Source: a virus | Lineage: Duplodnaviria > Caudoviricetes | Virus record (IMG/VR): IMGVR_UViG_3300035502_000485 | Location: 1 to 64,000 of that record | DNA: 64,000 bases | Reading direction: 5' to 3' (one strand) | Part shown: positions 26,175-32,544 of the stretch, one piece after another | Numbering within the stretch: the stretch's first letter is position 1 | How the letters are laid out: each line of letters starts with the position of its first letter | Program-made: the position numbers and the translations under genes | The notes under the pieces: generated by a model | What the model saw: only the letters and a program-made list of their open reading frames with translations | What the model was told of the DNA's origin: nothing | The model's database searches: none

Positions 26175-26618
26175 ATGCGAGTAACTCGACACGAAGAATT
26201 TGAAGCAGCTCATATACTTACTGGGTATGATGGTGGATGTGGTAATCTTCATGGTCATAGCTATAAAATTGAGGTAACATTTGAAGGTCAGCAAGATGCA
26301 TCTAATTATGGATTTGTAGCAGATTTCAATATATTAAAACAAATAATAAAAGATGTGTTACCTGATCACAAGATGATGTTTGATAATTCTAATCTTGGTA
26401 TCAATACACCAGAAGATGGAATCATAAATGTATTAGATGCATTTAATCTTTCTTATGTAGTTTATCAATTTGCACCATCGGCTGAAAATCTTGTAGCTTA
26501 TTTTGCCGAAGAAATACAACACAGAATTAGTAAATGTCCTGAACTTGAAAACATAAGGGTAGTAGAAGTTAAACTTTGGGAAACTACAAATTCATATGCT
26601 ACATGGAAATTAAACTAA
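26175..26618 (+). CDS. queD: 6-carboxytetrahydropterin synthase
   Basis: FEAAH, CGNLHGHSY, PSAENL, VKLWET. Confidence 0.95.
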   Translation: MRVTRHEEFEAAHILTGYDGGCGNLHGHSYKIEVTFEGQQDASNYGFVADFNILKQIIKDVLPDHKMMFDNSNLGINTPEDGIINVLDAFNLSYVVYQFAPSAENLVAYFAEEIQHRISKCPELENIRVVEVKLWETTNSYATWKLN

Positions 26619-26674: not shown

Positions 26675-27385
26675 ATGGCTTTTAAGTCAGTCAAAGACTA
26701 CAATGAAGAACGATATGGAGGACTATTTATTCTCCGTAATGACCTAGATTATGCTGATGTTATATTTTTATATCAGTCTGATCAAGATGTATTAGTCGCT
26801 GATACACATTATATTAAATCTGATGCATATTCAGGTTATGTACATTGTACTCAGCAGGGTTGTCCAGCTTGTGCAAAGGGCATTCGAACACAAACTAAAC
26901 TTTTCATCCCAATATATAACATCAAAGATGATGAAATTCAATTTTTTGATCGCTCAATGAAATTTGAACCTCAGCTTCAACAATCAGTATTTGCAAATTA
27001 TCCTAATCCATCAGAATATGTATTTAGAATTACTCGTCATGGTGATGCAGGTGATATGAATACTCGTTATGCTATTCAAGCAATTGGAAAGAATTCAGTA
27101 GCAAGCTACAATGAGATTCTTGCTAAATTCAATGCAACTATGCCAGAGTATTATAATACAATCTGTCGTGATGTAGATAATGCTACATTATCTCATTGGG
27201 TAAATTCGTCTAATAGTGGTTCAAATTCTATAAATGGTGAAATGCCTAATTATACAGTTAAACCTCGCGTAGAATCTGCAGCACCTGTAACTGCTCCACC
27301 AGCTGTAACGCCGCCGACAAGCTCATTAGACATTGTTGAAGATGCAGAAGAACTTGATGAAGATGATGCCGTAGATTTTAGTTAA
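26675..27385 (+). CDS. Single-stranded DNA-binding protein (gp32-like)
   Basis: H...HC..CPAC zinc ligands, FRITRHG..G...TRY, acidic C-terminal tail; upstream of polymerase. Confidence 0.75.
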   Translation: MAFKSVKDYNEERYGGLFILRNDLDYADVIFLYQSDQDVLVADTHYIKSDAYSGYVHCTQQGCPACAKGIRTQTKLFIPIYNIKDDEIQFFDRSMKFEPQLQQSVFANYPNPSEYVFRITRHGDAGDMNTRYAIQAIGKNSVASYNEILAKFNATMPEYYNTICRDVDNATLSHWVNSSNSGSNSINGEMPNYTVKPRVESAAPVTAPPAVTPPTSSLDIVEDAEELDEDDAVDFS

Positions 27386-27473: not shown

Positions 27474-29057
27474 ATGGGATTTGGTAAAATATTAAGTCAA
27501 GCTGATATGGCTACAATTAATGCAAATGCTCAAAAAAGTAAAGAAACATTGAAACCACCAGAAGCTATAAATACACGAAAATTAACTCGTGAAATTGAAG
27601 AAGCATCTAAAAATGTTAAAGAATACTTCAAAGACTCAAATGCTATACTCATACAATCTGTTGATGAATTACATGATTATGTAACTAAATTGATTGAATC
27701 TGGTTACGGTGGTATAGATACAGAGACTACTGGTCTTGATAGAATAAATGATATAATTGTAGGTTCTAGTTTATACTATCCTGGTGGTGTAGATTGCTAC
27801 ATACCTAATAAACATATACAACCTGCAGTCGATGCACCTTATAGTAATCAACTTACTTATGAAGAAGTAGGTAAAGAATTACAGAGAATTGCAGATAGCG
27901 ATACAAAATTAATATTTGCAAATGCAGATTTCGACTTGGCGATGATATATAAAGACTACAAAGTAGATTTATGTGATAATTGTTATTATGATGTTATTTT
28001 AGCTTGGCGTTGTATTAAAGAGAATGAACCTAATAATCAGTTGAAAACATTATATAACAAATATGTTCTCAAAGGTAAGGGCGATCCTAAAAAGTTTACA
28101 GATTTTTTCTCGCCAAAAATGTTTCCATACTGCAATCCTAATATTGCAAAATTATATGCTGCAAATGACGCAAAAATTACATATGAGTTATTTTGTTGGC
28201 AATTACCTTATCTTATGCCTGATAATCCAAAGTGTAAAAAACACAACTTTGAGAATATTGCAAATCTAGTTTGGAATATTGAATTTCCGCTTATCAAAAT
28301 ATGTCAAGAAATGCATAGAAATGGTGTATATCTTGAAAAATCTATATCTGATAGATTACATATAAAATATTCATTAGAATATAATGCTGAAATGGCTAAA
28401 CTTCAAGATATGATACAGGCAATATTAGACGATCCAAAATATCATTCTAATGCTAAACGACCATTCATGAGTGGTGCAGATTTCAATCCAAAATCAACAA
28501 CACATGTAAGTTATTTATTATATTCATTGATGAAAATTTCAACAAATAGTAAAGATGGTAAACAAGGTACAGGCAAAGAATTGCTTGCACAACTTAATTT
28601 ACCAGTAACTAATCAAATATTGAAAGTAAGAAGTTTAAATGTATTGATTAGTACATTTGTTGAGAAGTTACCTAATGCAACGTCAACTGATAGTAGAATA
28701 CATTGTAGATTTAATCAAGTAGGGGCAGCAACTGGTAGATTATCTTCAGCTGATCCAAATATGCAAAATATTCCTTCTAAAGCAAAAGATATCAGACGAA
28801 TGTTTAGGGCTACACCTTCGACTAATCAGTTATTAGAATGTACATATGATGATGACATAAACAAATTAGTTATGAGTTTAGATAGATTATATAAAGTGAC
28901 TACACCTAACGGTCAAACATATGTAAAAGATTTGATTGTAGGTGATGATGTACAATTTTTGAATGATAATAAGGAGGAAAGATATTTATATGTTAAATCA
29001 ATTGAAACTTCCAGTGACAACGCCAGCTTATGTGATGTTGTCTTCGGACTACAGTAA
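27474..29057 (+). CDS. polA: DNA polymerase family A, N-terminal part (3'-5' exonuclease, thumb) with non-polymerase C-terminal extension
   Basis: IDTETTGL, NADFD, YAANDA, TGRLSSADPNMQNIP, IRRMFRATP; motif A is not in this frame. Confidence 0.92.
   Translation: MGFGKILSQADMATINANAQKSKETLKPPEAINTRKLTREIEEASKNVKEYFKDSNAILIQSVDELHDYVTKLIESGYGGIDTETTGLDRINDIIVGSSLYYPGGVDCYIPNKHIQPAVDAPYSNQLTYEEVGKELQRIADSDTKLIFANADFDLAMIYKDYKVDLCDNCYYDVILAWRCIKENEPNNQLKTLYNKYVLKGKGDPKKFTDFFSPKMFPYCNPNIAKLYAANDAKITYELFCWQLPYLMPDNPKCKKHNFENIANLVWNIEFPLIKICQEMHRNGVYLEKSISDRLHIKYSLEYNAEMAKLQDMIQAILDDPKYHSNAKRPFMSGADFNPKSTTHVSYLLYSLMKISTNSKDGKQGTGKELLAQLNLPVTNQILKVRSLNVLISTFVEKLPNATSTDSRIHCRFNQVGAATGRLSSADPNMQNIPSKAKDIRRMFRATPSTNQLLECTYDDDINKLVMSLDRLYKVTTPNGQTYVKDLIVGDDVQFLNDNKEERYLYVKSIETSSDNASLCDVVFGLQ
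28990..29055 (+). CDS. polA: Polymerase C-terminal part, exon 1 (MLNQLKLPVTTPAYVMLSSDYS), +1 frame relative to N-terminal part
   Basis: AAGGAGG at 28971-28977, ATG 28990; carries first half of motif A, joined by splicing to AQEPR. Confidence 0.75.
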
Positions 29058-30175
29058 AATGTGTGCTGTAGTAAAACCTGCTTAATTCGGTGGAATCTCT
29101 ACATCATTTTAATCTAGGTTTAGATGTAGAGGCTATACCGAGCAAGATAAATTCATTTAACTTGTCCACAATAACCTTGTATATGCTATGAGGTGATTGT
29201 CAATGTTAATATATAAAATAACTAATAATATGAACGACAAGTGTTATATAGGTCAAACCATAAAAACTATAGAAGATCGAATATCTAATCATAAACAATC
29301 TGCTAAACGTGGAGAAAATACTAAATTTTATAATGCAATTAGAAAATATGGTTGGGATAATTTTTCTATAGAAGTAATTGCTACTACAGATACACAAGAA
29401 ACTTTAGATGAGTTAGAAACTTATTTTATCAAGAAATATGATTCTGTAAATAATGGATATAATATGTCATATGGTGGTGAAATAAATCCTATGAATTCAC
29501 CTGAAGTTGTAGAAAAACATAAAAAGCGGATGCAATCACCTGAAGTAAGAGCTAAAATTTCAGCTTCAATGAAAGCCAGGATTGCTGCTCAAGGTGGAAT
29601 TTCTGATGAGCATCGAAAACATGTATCTGAGGGGCTTAAAAAATTTTATGCTGATGGTAAAAAACCTAATTATAAAGAACCTCAACATCTATCACCAGAA
29701 CATTTCAAAGCATTAAATGATGCAAAAAATAAAGCTGTTAAATGTATTGATATGGACGGTATTTTAGTTGCGGAATTCAAACGTGTAAAAGATGCAGCTA
29801 ATTGGTGGTATCAAAATGGTTATAATAATATTAAAAGTAGTGATCAACTGAATGACAGAATTAAAGAATCAGCTACCCAAGATAAATATATACGAGGTTT
29901 GAAATGGATTTATTGTGTGTAGAGACTATCCAAAGCTAAAAATCTACATTCATAGAAATATGTAAATGATCTATAGGTCAGGTAGATTGAGATAATCAAG
30001 CAAGTAGAGTAGAGCTCAAGCGAGTTAGTATTTAGGTGAGATTAGCCTATTGTAAACCTATTAAATCGAAACAGCAGGTGCATATGTATTGTGGTGATAG
30101 CAATACAAATGTAAAGATTTAGTCCGACACTCTTAGCGATAAGAGAAATGTTTAGCGAACATATAACTAAAACAG
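29056..30175 (+). mobile_element. Group I intron in polA motif A
   Basis: P1: exon actacagt pairs with gctgtagt (29065-29072) with U-G at the splice site; R element AGAGACTA (29921); S element AAGATTTAGTCC (30114); terminal G 30175; splicing restores DYS|AQEPR. Confidence 0.92.
29197..29922 (+). CDS. Intron-encoded GIY-YIG homing endonuclease
   Basis: LIYKITN...CYIGQT...R...H...AIRKYG...E..FI...GYN; NUMOD3-like repeats; late motif at 29173; start may be ATG 29203. Confidence 0.92.
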   Translation: MSMLIYKITNNMNDKCYIGQTIKTIEDRISNHKQSAKRGENTKFYNAIRKYGWDNFSIEVIATTDTQETLDELETYFIKKYDSVNNGYNMSYGGEINPMNSPEVVEKHKKRMQSPEVRAKISASMKARIAAQGGISDEHRKHVSEGLKKFYADGKKPNYKEPQHLSPEHFKALNDAKNKAVKCIDMDGILVAEFKRVKDAANWWYQNGYNNIKSSDQLNDRIKESATQDKYIRGLKWIYCV

Positions 30176-31393
30176 GCTCAAGAACCTAGAATTACAGCAT
30201 TTGTTAGTCAAGATACGAAAATGATACAATCGTTTAAAGATGGTAAAGATATATATGGATCTATCGCAAGTATTGCTTTTAATGTTCCTTATGAAGAATG
30301 TTTAGAGTTTCATCCAGAAACTCATGAATATCAGCCAGAAGGTAAAGCCCGACGAGGAGAGGCTAAGACAATTGTATTAGGCATATGTTATGGGCGTTCA
30401 GTTCAAACTATTGCTGATCAATTGTATGGAAAAGACGATACATTATCTGATGATGAAAAAATTGCTAAAGCTCAAAATGTATTTGATTCAGTACTTTTAG
30501 CATTTCCAGGTTTACGAGCTTTAATGAATAATGCACAAAATTGTGCAAAACAAAAAGGTTATGTTGAAACAATTTTAGGTAGAAGGCGTCATATCCCTGA
30601 AATGCAACTTCCTAAATTTGAATTTGTACCAGAACCTGGTTATATTAATCCTGATGTTGATCCATTGGATCCTTCTACACTTGCTAATAAGAATGGTATT
30701 CCTGATAGAATAATTCGTAAGTTAACAACTGAATTTGAATCATATAAGTATTATGGTCAGATATACAAGCGAATGAAAGAACTTAAGGAAGATCATATCA
30801 AAGTAATCAATAATTCTCAGACAATTACAGATGCTTCTAGAAAATGTGTAAATTCAATTATACAAGGTAGCGCAGCTGAGCAAACTAAAATGGCTATGCT
30901 TCTTATTGAAAACAATGAAGAATGGAAGCGTATTGGAGGACGGTTGCTAATACCAGTACATGATGAATTAATTGCTGAAGTACCTATTGAAAATTACGAA
31001 GAGGGTGCAGAGTTACTTAGTAGTATGATGTGTGAAGCAGCAAACTTTTTGCCATTTGAAAGTAAGTGCGATGTTGAAATAACTTATCGCTGGTATGGTT
31101 TATCATTTCCTTGCCCATATCCACAACCATCAGAATTTAATGATGATCTGAGTAGAGATGAAATCAAATGGATTCAATATCATTTGTTTGAATCTGGATA
31201 TGAATTACCTAAAATTAAAGCACACGAAGACGATGAATTACGTGGTGACGAAGCATTAGGTATCAGTGGGTTTGTAAGCGATGAATATCATACTGCAATA
31301 GATGATTATCTAAATCGTTATAGTATAACAAAAGAACAGTTTATCAATCATATACATACAAAGGTACATACAGGTGTAATTCCTACAATGTAA
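30176..31393 (+). CDS. polA: Polymerase C-terminal part, exon 2 (fingers/palm)
   Basis: AQEPRITA; motif B RGEAKTIVLGICYG; GYVETILGRRR; NSIIQGSAA; motif C VHDEL. Confidence 0.93.
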   Translation, partial: AQEPRITAFVSQDTKMIQSFKDGKDIYGSIASIAFNVPYEECLEFHPETHEYQPEGKARRGEAKTIVLGICYGRSVQTIADQLYGKDDTLSDDEKIAKAQNVFDSVLLAFPGLRALMNNAQNCAKQKGYVETILGRRRHIPEMQLPKFEFVPEPGYINPDVDPLDPSTLANKNGIPDRIIRKLTTEFESYKYYGQIYKRMKELKEDHIKVINNSQTITDASRKCVNSIIQGSAAEQTKMAMLLIENNEEWKRIGGRLLIPVHDELIAEVPIENYEEGAELLSSMMCEAANFLPFESKCDVEITYRWYGLSFPCPYPQPSEFNDDLSRDEIKWIQYHLFESGYELPKIKAHEDDELRGDEALGISGFVSDEYHTAIDDYLNRYSITKEQFINHIHTKVHTGVIPTM

Positions 31394-31428: not shown

Positions 31429-32544
31429 TTGAAATTTACTGTTAGTACTAAACCATTAGTAGATAGTTTAGATTTAGGTATTGTAAATGCCAATGTATCT
31501 AAATTCTATCAAAGAAGTACTGTAGCTCAAATTACAGCTACAAAAACTGATTTAAAAATTAACTTAGAAGCTGCATCAATTGTTTCTGAAATCCATTTGA
31601 AAGGTTCAGGTGATTCAGACACTAAATCAGTTGTATTTGTAGATAGCTTATTGTTTAAACAGCTTGTATCTACATTTGAAACTTCAACTACTGAATTTGA
31701 ATTTACTGAAAATGGACTAATTTTACATTCAGGTAAATCAAAATTTACATTACCTAAGATGATTGATGATGACGATGTAGAATTAGATGCACCAAGCTTA
31801 GCTGATTATAATGTTCAAAAAATTTCAATTGATAAATCAGATTGGAAGTTTATTAAAGATTACCAGATGTATGCTATTGCAATGTCATTTATTCATCCTG
31901 TATATACTCGAGTTTGGGTAGGTGAAGATGGACAAGTACTTGTAGGTGATTTTGATAACAGCTTATTTACATATTCTAAGAAAAATAATCTTAATAGAAC
32001 TTGCTTACTTGCTGATACAATTATCAATTTATTCAATGCTTTGCCAGAAGGTGCAGAAATTGCCCCACTTGATAAAAGTTATGTTGTAAATGTTAAAACT
32101 GATAGTTATGAATTCATTGCAGAATTCACACCTGAATACGAAGATGAAGATGATATTGGAAGTTACAATTCTGCTATTATTCTTAACCTCATGACTACAG
32201 ATGAAAATAATACATTGAAATTTGATATTTCACCAATCAAGAAAGCATTAGATCAATCATCATTGCTTTCTAGTAATTCAGAAGATAAAATTGAATTCTC
32301 TGTAATTGATAATCAAATTATTCTTAAAGATAATAATATTGAGTCTAAGGTAGATGTAAAGGGTAATGATTCAAGTTTCAATTATTCATTACAATTTAAA
32401 ACAGAATCGTTAAAATCTGTTGTATCTAAACTTCCATCTGATACCATTACACTTAGTCCAATGATTTCTGGTGAAGGTTCAGAAGTAGTAGGTGTTGTAA
32501 TTGAGAGTGACGGTCTAACTGTTGTATTAGCAGGTGTAGATTAA
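31429..32544 (+). CDS. dnaN: DNA polymerase III beta-like sliding clamp
   Basis: 371 aa, MKFTVSTKPL start, SGKSKFTLP, acidic three-domain clamp-like layout, next to clamp-loader genes. Confidence 0.75.
   Translation: MKFTVSTKPLVDSLDLGIVNANVSKFYQRSTVAQITATKTDLKINLEAASIVSEIHLKGSGDSDTKSVVFVDSLLFKQLVSTFETSTTEFEFTENGLILHSGKSKFTLPKMIDDDDVELDAPSLADYNVQKISIDKSDWKFIKDYQMYAIAMSFIHPVYTRVWVGEDGQVLVGDFDNSLFTYSKKNNLNRTCLLADTIINLFNALPEGAEIAPLDKSYVVNVKTDSYEFIAEFTPEYEDEDDIGSYNSAIILNLMTTDENNTLKFDISPIKKALDQSSLLSSNSEDKIEFSVIDNQIILKDNNIESKVDVKGNDSSFNYSLQFKTESLKSVVSKLPSDTITLSPMISGEGSEVVGVVIESDGLTVVLAGVD

Follow-up and report, generated by a model that had tools for sequence, protein, structure and literature searches.

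A phage family A DNA polymerase gene divided just before motif A: a probable two-subunit enzyme broken within an intein-like domain

The polA gene of a tailed phage (Duplodnaviria; Caudoviricetes) raises the question of how a family A DNA polymerase can be produced from a gene whose reading frame changes immediately ahead of catalytic motif A. The gene lies in the first 64 kb of the 136-kb virus record IMGVR_UViG_3300035502_000485, and this whole stretch of 64,000 nucleotides (nt) is referred to here as the window. Frame 0 of polA reads ..NIPSKAKDIRRMFRATP, with ..KDIRRMFRATP encoded by codons that include TTT at 28803, ACA at 28812 and CCT at 28815, after which it adds 79 non-polymerase residues and closes at a TAA (29055-29057), while in the +1 frame an ATG at 28990, behind AAGGAGG, opens MLNQLKLPVTTPAYVMLSSDYS, up to 29055. 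A preliminary description of this sequence had recorded the frame split, with IRRMFRATP followed by foreign residues in one frame and TPAYVMLSSDYS in the other, and every sequence detail that it gave holds. It had left two readings side by side, a natural two-subunit PolA encoded by overlapping genes and an unrecognised splicing or bypass element, of which the former is supported by the analysis below and the latter is not. In our assessment, it is likely that the enzyme is a PolA of two subunits, divided within a decayed intein-like domain, and that a split-intein-like module holds the two halves together.

Both pieces carry the signatures of a family A polymerase. The N fragment (527 amino acids (aa); P0001 in the protein collection) comprises the 3'-5' exonuclease together with the N-terminal portion of the polymerase domain and, at its C end, most of an insert domain, and it matches Pfam DNA_pol_A_exo1 (PF01612, expectation value (E) 3.7e-10) and DNA_pol_A (PF00476, 3.5e-27, profile positions 25-159 of 381). 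The second exon of the C-fragment gene matches DNA_pol_A (PF00476) at 4.9e-36 over profile positions 256-380, and all of these PF01612 and PF00476 matches lie above the curated cut-offs, which assigns the enzyme to the family A DNA polymerases. The C fragment, 427 aa after removal of an intron, holds SSDYS in its first exon and RRGEAKTIVLGICYG and VHDE in its second, which we take to be the polymerase motifs A (the DYS aspartate), B (R..K....G..YG) and C (HDE), so that all three catalytic motifs reside in this half; the C fragment of an intron-less relative aligns to Taq across motifs A, B and C. Its first exon consists of a 10-residue head, MLNQLKLPVT, followed by TPAYVMLSSDYS, which forms the palm strand bearing this aspartate of motif A. 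The start of the N fragment is taken to be ATG 27474, from relatives beginning MGLFSQ, and its end depends on the state of the RNA: because the TAA stop codon straddles the 5' splice site of the intron (T|AA), the product would have 527 aa from unspliced RNA or 531 aa (..GLQCSRT) from spliced RNA. The sizes found, 527 or 531 and 427 aa, agree with the ~530 and 427 aa of the preliminary description. Megablast against 50,697 phage records gave no match, and the best tblastn identity, to Bacillus phage Flasso, was only 34%.

The layout recurs in relatives gathered from virus and metagenome contigs. Insert-less relatives (L001, L003, L004, L007, L008, L010) read FRA(T/M/S)PG(Y/H)V.MSSDYS without interruption, and the layout of the window is present in seven further independent loci, namely L005, L006, L020 (= L034, L025), L022 (= L035), L023, L027 and L033. 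Each of the seven carries a related insert whose length is 1 modulo 3, a frame 0 that ends within the motif A codons or immediately behind them, and a +1 frame with ..TP(A/P)YV..SSDYS, so that the same two-frame phasing is found in all eight overlapping loci; the stretch shared by the two halves, each in its own frame, measures 58-68 nt across split loci. Start signals for the downstream half are conserved as well. GGAGG, a Shine-Dalgarno (SD) sequence, stands at the aligned place and inside the same pair of frame-0 codons in 8/8 loci, at a distance of 9 nt from the start codon in seven of them and 12 nt in the window, and the start codon occupies the same aligned +1 codon in all eight (ATG in two, the window and L023, and TTG in the remaining six). 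A +1-frame stop falls between the SD and the start codon in three of the eight (L005, L020, L027). In other assemblies, genes have been called for C fragments of 424-436 aa that stand on their own and bear this head, and eight clusters of them were aligned. The preliminary description had named a single-base assembly error as the finding that would overturn it; this is rejected, because seven independent loci from other assemblies share the two-frame layout, and the split layout is confirmed as real rather than a product of chance or misassembly.

What frame 0 encodes downstream of FRATP is a conserved protein domain. A profile built from three split-type inserts was scored against 1.84 billion proteins (E up to 1e-3) and retrieved 28 of them, comprising 25 PolA pieces that end at the insert, two full-length polymerases with the insert in frame (P0013, P0014) and one unrelated repeat protein. 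A second search around the insert region gave 182 matches. When 147 proteins were sorted by pattern, the insert proved to be in frame in 53 and absent in 35, with the rest outside the pattern; this comparison with relatives, of the kind proposed in the preliminary description, separates in-frame and insert-less polymerases from the split type of the window. From FRA to SSDYS, the 53 in-frame proteins have 91-111 residues, and their total length is ~940-955 aa, or ~1090-1460 aa where true inteins are also present; at the DNA level the in-frame form is seen in L028, L029/L030 and L036.

The domain is conserved in 32 split-type and 53 in-frame sequences and sits in a hairpin just before motif A. 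In the alignment, the N-fragment tail corresponds to the in-frame domain up to its penultimate strand, and the first 10 residues of the C fragment (MLNQLKLPVT in the window) correspond to its last strand, which means that the split form holds the whole domain across its two fragments. This last strand reads ..SIKH(T/I) in the in-frame proteins and YQIQHR, LKLPVT or FQIPVT in split forms, and the head strand is conserved in an aromatic-x-Ile pattern. Family searches are silent: Pfam and PHROGs yielded 0 families on the insert, and a word-based protein search with it returned the window's own protein as the sole match. Thr-Pro is encoded at both ends of the insert (ACA CCT at 28812-28817, ACG CCA at 29020-29025), and the earlier suggestion that these pairs are an old target duplication is plausible from the sequence, because relatives repeat T-P-A at both insert ends. 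In L028 (4306-4590), the nucleotides of the penultimate strand (PYTTISFDSS) and of the motif A strand (PPYVIMSSDYS) are identical at 21/30 positions in frame, and no comparable match occurs in L029 or L036; this identity could be a trace of an old target duplication or chance, and is too weak to decide between duplication and overprinting.

By predicted structure, the domain resembles the Hint fold of inteins. AlphaFold2 modelled an in-frame copy (37-row alignment) with nine strands and a mean predicted local distance difference test (pLDDT) value of 87.6, the split point falling in the loop 73-78 between the last two strands, and the window's own tail (30-row alignment) with a mean of 82.8; within the overlap, frame 0 forms a predicted strand LCDVVFG (E76-82) in a block of pLDDT 85-88. 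When the in-frame model was compared by VIA-align with 48,161 chains, the top five were all inteins (Z 6.9-6.1, root-mean-square deviation (rmsd) 1.7-2.1, 59-62 residues aligned), namely PI-SceI domain I (Z 6.9, rmsd 2.0, 62 aligned), MchDnaB-1 (6.8), Prp8 (6.4), gp41-1 (6.3) and VMA1 (6.1). Model residues 21/23-84 cover these top inteins from residue 1 to their end, and Hint folds make up 18 of the best 50 rows. For the window tail, gp41-1 comes first (Z 6.8, rmsd 2.1, 57 aligned, 25% identity) and MchDnaB-1 second (Z 6.5, 20%), with Hint folds in 9 of the best 50 rows. Besides, the top ESM Atlas matches of the window tail are PT-HINT/Hint clusters (0.92, at a recognition value of 2210, which is below the reliable level), and sub-threshold Pfam matches to the Hint clan occur in 7/37 members (Hint_2 in four, Vint in two, Hint in one; best E 0.03).

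Several results weigh against descent from an intein, a reading that draws its support from predicted structure and not from sequence profiles. VIA-align Z values of 6-7 lie in a range common for that tool, and for the window tail model phage tail-tip proteins tie with inteins (Z 6.4, 6.2). Foldseek found nothing in the PDB at E 1e-3 or better, its best row being the gp41-1 intein at E 0.15. No curated Pfam Hint model reached threshold in the 37 members scanned, hhalign of the in-frame domain with the true inteins of the same polymerase family gave a probability of 0.3% (E 0.12), and a profile search of PDB sequences yielded only a designed repeat protein and noise. Moreover, none of the relatives gathered was seen to carry an active intein at precisely this site. 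On balance, the insert domain is probably a descendant of an intein that has become smaller and no longer has its splicing residues, a view that leans on the structural models.

The same models bear on how the two halves might reunite. In alignments of the C fragment to Taq and Klenow, the match begins at residue 13; its first 12 residues, and with them the head, are therefore extra to the polymerase fold, and the break lies 12 residues before the motif A strand, which carries the motif A aspartate. The heterodimer prediction proposed in the preliminary description was run on the intron-less pair of L025, using the 88-aa N tail, the first 40 residues of the C fragment and alignments of our own making. 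It scored 0.70, against 0.01 for the best of three controls, a mark reached by 58/80 solved complexes and 2/110 mismatched pairs; contact agreement between runs was at least 78% and partner pLDDT at least 55. Residues 6-10 of the head (QIKHR) contact three strands of the tail (18-23, 38-41 and 60-62). The score may reflect the model's memory of solved split inteins, and the alignments supplied to it were ours. With these cautions, the complex model suggests that the halves probably associate without a covalent bond, through the head strand docked in the N-fragment domain.

Two relatives indicate how such a break may have arisen. In L031 and L032, an N fragment, a 606-aa homing endonuclease and a C fragment follow one another, joined by ATGA overlaps, and the C fragment of L031 reads MTKYQIPIITSPYVMMSSDYS. 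The 606-aa gene (L031:4548-6368; also in L032) matches PHROG 3339 (E 5e-98) as well as Pfam DUF7487, and also shows a match to Mom below threshold. Its last codons are homologous to the N-fragment tail codons of split loci, and the DNA upstream of the L031 C fragment can be aligned with the overlap of the split locus L035, in an alignment that takes in the SD. In fractured genes, as described by Dassa et al. (2009, PMC2677866), an enzyme gene is broken in an intein region with a free-standing homing endonuclease in between; that paper proposes that an endonuclease gene invades the intein-coding region, bringing stop and start signals with it, and is later lost. One enzyme gene is likewise found here as two adjacent same-strand genes, the downstream one with its own SD and start, in 8/8 loci. 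An endonuclease gene between the halves is absent from the window, where they overlap, and present in L031 and L032, and the parts of the domain beside the break are Hint-like by predicted structure, not by sequence profiles. With a free-standing endonuclease gene located at the very point of the break in a relative, the window looks like a fractured gene minus its endonuclease.

The resemblance to the cases of Dassa et al. is that a conserved phage replication enzyme is encoded by two adjacent same-strand genes broken inside an intein-type domain, that the endonuclease gene of L031 and L032 lies precisely where the break is and runs at its 3' end into the downstream half, and that the late stage of their model, with the endonuclease lost and the halves side by side, corresponds to the layout of the window. 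There are also differences. The host gene here is a family A polymerase, of which we are not aware of a case in that paper, its supplementary gene lists aside; the C piece has 10 residues rather than the usual 35 or so; the Hint part has ~62 core residues without splicing residues; and this decayed domain also occurs widely in frame, as an insert without interruption. In addition, the halves share 58-68 nt that are read in different frames, and a strand of either protein is thereby encoded in one stretch.

Trees indicate that the split form does not track the polymerase that carries it. An N-part tree (FastTree; ~438 columns upstream of the insert, 103 rows, with L036 left out because 66 residues were recovered) requires 8 changes for its 8 split rows. 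In a 36-row subset (8 split, 16 in-frame and 12 insert-less rows, partial L035 left out; IQ-TREE quick search), 7 changes are needed and a single clade of split rows is rejected by the approximately unbiased (AU) test at p 5.9e-8, with the reservation that the subset for this test was chosen by hand. The window groups with insert-less forms, in a set with the starred value 95 composed of four insert-less rows and the window, and L005, L006, L033, L034 and L031 stand each separate from one another inside the in-frame clade. By contrast, the domain's own tree (85 rows) needs 3 changes for the split versus in-frame label, also without the tail columns, in which case a branch with the starred value 97 separates all 32 split rows and four divergent in-frame ones from the main in-frame group of 49. 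For either flank of the window, the nearest sequence is insert-less L001 (N part 66%, C part 67%; L022 and L023 were left out of the C-part identity comparison). Because the trees conflict and both flanks are nearest to an insert-less polymerase, the split cassette has been exchanged between polymerase backbones. The intron begins 37 nt downstream of the insert, and its endonuclease and the free-standing endonuclease were probably the carriers, by co-conversion. The intron endonuclease cannot have been the sole carrier, a point that tells against the simplest form of this proposal, because the split loci L020 and L027 lack the intron.

In the mechanism that we propose, the polymerase would be made as two proteins, an N fragment of 527 aa and a C fragment of 427 aa, the latter starting from its own SD and ATG in the +1 frame inside the end of the N-fragment gene and being translated after removal of the intron. 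An ancestral intein would have lost its splicing residues and shrunk, staying as an insert before motif A; a homing endonuclease would have broken the domain in the loop before its last strand and later been lost, leaving halves that overlap by 68 nt. The head strand of the C fragment would then slot into the N-fragment domain as split-intein halves do, with the two palm strands pairing, and the split cassette would move between polymerase backbones with neighbouring homing endonucleases. We infer separate translation and assembly of the halves from the start signals and the structural models. The most specific form of the proposal, which we put forward only tentatively, is a splice-dead split intein acting as a non-covalent clasp of ~75 + 10 residues, derived from a ~85-residue palm insert, spread by endonucleases, and with its overlap strands encoded in two frames.

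Among the other explanations, the one that survives best, although unlikely, is that the gene is a decaying pseudogene or that the insert is a small beta domain without intein history, the split being neutral and the domain having no role in assembly. The failed sequence-level tests of Hint homology and the tie of other beta folds with inteins for the window model would suit an unrelated domain, and split polymerase halves can associate through their native interface alone. Against decay, both open reading frames are intact and conserved in eight divergent loci with their start signals kept; against an unrelated domain stand the in-frame model, whose ranks 1-5 are inteins aligned end to end and well ahead of unrelated folds, and three different methods that indicate the Hint clan. 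A domain without a role is also at odds with a head strand that is conserved and docks in the complex model.

Alternatively, the halves could be ligated after translation by a working, very atypical trans-splicing split intein, yielding a contiguous PolA. The fold resembles inteins and the break that of a split intein; a Thr that could act as +1 nucleophile directly follows the domain in the window and in most relatives, a His stands two residues before the junction in many copies, and a Cys lies near the position aligned with intein residue 1 in L022, L031 and L033. However, the residues that perform splicing are wanting. In the nine split loci, the domain ends with Thr, Arg, Ile or Met, and a terminal Asn followed by Ser, Thr or Cys occurs in 0/9 of these loci and 0/53 in-frame copies (P0087 has Asn and then Pro). 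No TxxH block is seen in the alignment of split and in-frame domains, and the window has Ser-Leu, not Cys, at the structurally aligned intein residue 1, which we count as lacking a splicing nucleophile. The domain has ~62 core residues against 137-161 for true mini-inteins of the same PolA family, and in-frame copies would retain ~20 extra residues even if spliced. With so small a Hint part devoid of splicing residues, no trans-splicing is expected, and ligation of the halves, like any present-day splicing by the domain, is very unlikely.

A programmed +1 ribosomal frameshift in the overlap, which would give one ~950-aa polymerase with an insertion domain, deserves little credence. Frames 0 and +1 are both open over 28963-29057, the in-frame relatives show that a fused protein is viable, and an SD-like sequence within a coding region can stimulate a +1 shift, as in prfB. 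But no conserved slippery motif was found by eye in the aligned overlaps of the eight loci, nor a fixed frame-0 stop or rare codon, and the +1-frame stop after the SD confines the shift to a stretch of at most 13 codons in L005, L020 and L027. The spacing of 9-12 nt between SD and start suits initiation, not the 3-nt type of prfB; a shifted product would lack the frame-0 strand after the shift site, which in-frame relatives have; and in L031 and L032 a whole gene separates the halves.

Scarcely credible is the idea, raised in the preliminary description, that the 208 nt from 28812 to 29019 are removed as a small intron or skipped by long-range bypass to give FRATPAYVML as in insert-less relatives: the deletion would restore the frame and yield FRATPAYVMLSSDYS, Thr-Pro codons flank the insert with ACA at both 28812 and 29017, and one self-splicing intron is already in the gene, yet the frame-0 insert peptide is conserved as protein, confidently folded and uninterrupted by a frame change in 53 relatives, the codon match is confined to the window (L005, for one, has ACT and ACA), no stop follows the take-off codon, Rfam yields nothing relevant across the insert at E up to 10, and with the 208-nt boundaries both candidate 3' ends of the insert are an A rather than the terminal G of a group I intron. 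The 205-nt gap would be four times that of T4 gene 60. Like T4 gene 60 and prfB, the window has a frame discontinuity in an essential gene, with matching end codons and an upstream SD-like sequence; unlike them, its gap encodes a conserved domain, and it has no such stop, no conserved slippery site and an SD spaced for initiation.

Returning to the two-subunit enzyme, split phage polymerases as such are already known. Phage polymerase and reductase genes split without inteins include gp43 of T4-like phages and nrdA of phage Aeh1 (cited in PMC2677866), and a split DNAP is found in the OM43 phages MEP401/402 (PMC10580990). These too are essential replication enzymes in two pieces, often with an endonuclease or small open reading frame between them, and are thought to act as non-covalent complexes; their breaks are not reported to fall in an intein-like domain or to involve overlapping frames, whereas here the gene is broken inside an additional domain, which apparently provides the joint. 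With natural and engineered split inteins (such as cyanobacterial DnaE, gp41-1 and NrdJ-1; structures 6riz and 8ubs were matched), the window shares a similar predicted fold, predicted strand-by-strand complementation and a C piece that ends with a His near the junction, then Thr. It differs from them in lacking the N-terminal nucleophile, TxxH and the terminal Asn, in having a domain of half the size, and in being invisible to profiles. A splice-dead intein remnant in a family A polymerase is not known to us from the literature on fractured genes, split phage polymerases and inteins, supplements aside. The sharing of the domain with in-frame relatives, its Hint/intein likeness and the match to an endonuclease-bearing fractured gene had gone unrecognised in the preliminary description.

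The C-fragment gene is itself interrupted by an intron with the features of group I at 29056-30175. In its P1 helix, which is unchanged in 6/6 intron-bearing loci, exon ACUACAGU is base-paired to GCUGUAGU (29065-29072) and U.G stands at the 5' splice site; the helix after P1 shows compensatory changes at 10/30 predicted pairs; and the last base of the intron is G at 30175. Exon 2 begins at 30176 with GCT CAA GAA CCT, the start of AQEPR, so that the junction exactly restores SSDYS-AQEPR, and intron-less relatives are continuous at this site. Rfam gave 7 matches between 28300 and 30700 at E up to 10, all with E at least 1.2 and irrelevant, and no group I model, and 0 matches at gathering score on six related loci; an open reading frame of >700 nt inside the intron may lie behind the missing group I match. 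This frame encodes a GIY-YIG homing endonuclease (Pfam GIY-YIG 3.8e-12; PHROG homing endonuclease families down to 9.7e-35), whose relatives start MLIYKITN. As previously noted for the window, intron splicing does not rejoin the polymerase frames, frame 0 still closing after GLQCSRT. The intron is present in 6/8 split loci, and in L020 and L027, which lack it, the C-fragment frame is continuous; the frame break is independent of the intron, because these two loci have the break without it. The features are collected below.

Table. Positions of the polA parts and associated elements in the window.
Feature	Position	Strand	Remarks
N-fragment gene of PolA	27474..29057	+	open reading frame 27423/27474..29057; 527 aa, or 531 aa from spliced RNA
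N-fragment part of insert domain, 79 aa	28818..29054	+	all-beta, Hint/intein-like by predicted structure
Shine-Dalgarno AAGGAGG for C fragment	28971..28977	+	inside K-E-E codons of N fragment
C-fragment gene, exon 1, 22 codons, +1 frame	28990..29055	+	from open reading frame listing; start conserved in 8/8 loci
Two-frame overlap, 68 nt	28990..29057	+	frame 0, N-fragment tail; frame +1, C-fragment head and motif A strand
Group I-type intron, 1120 nt	29056..30175	+	interrupts C-fragment gene directly after SSDYS
Intron-encoded GIY-YIG homing endonuclease	29203..29922	+	open reading frame listed from TTG 29197; ATG 29203 likely start
C-fragment gene, exon 2, 405 codons and stop	30176..31393	+	motif B RRGEAKTIVLGICYG, motif C VHDE

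Other mobile elements were observed in this polymerase family. The polA of L002 is interrupted elsewhere, after KTIVLG, ~200 nt past motif A, and several insert-less proteins of 535-543 aa (P0096, P0113, P0115, P0119) end near that site, which suggests a second intron position. True inteins, with a Cys start and a His-Asn end, occupy three other sites in relatives, before TGR (286-394 aa), after TGR[F/M] (mini-inteins of 137-161 aa, or 333-335 aa with HNH) and between CVN and SI(I/V)QGSAA. They occur in P0013, P0032, P0037, P0038, P0046, P0050, P0056, P0079-P0082, P0084 and P0085, and further in P0091, P0100, P0101, P0116 and P0121. Judged by its sequences, the polA of these phages is a hot spot for mobile elements.

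Around polA, a gene for a QueD-like 6-pyruvoyl-tetrahydropterin synthase (26175-26618, Pfam PTPS 1e-28) lies just upstream of the replication genes and may belong to a deazaguanine DNA-modification pathway. It is followed by a 236-aa gene before polA (26675-27385) that matches no Pfam family and is kept at the same place in L031. The gene after polA (31429-32544) has a sub-threshold match to a beta-clamp C-terminal domain (E 0.006) and is possibly a sliding clamp.

Annotation pipelines would label such a polA frameshifted or broken, but it is more likely a working two-subunit enzyme, and its split layout is common to at least eight phage lineages. A single family presents late stages in the life of an intein and its endonuclease, as an in-frame fossil, a fossil broken by an endonuclease and a break that remains after endonuclease loss, which makes the gene-breaking model of Dassa et al. 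testable by experiment within one family. The stretch read in two frames, both readings of which are apparently structural, represents compact overprinting under strong constraint. If the decayed domain does join the halves, the remains of a selfish element would have been put to structural use by these phages, and they would form a very small natural complementation pair of possible use in protein engineering.

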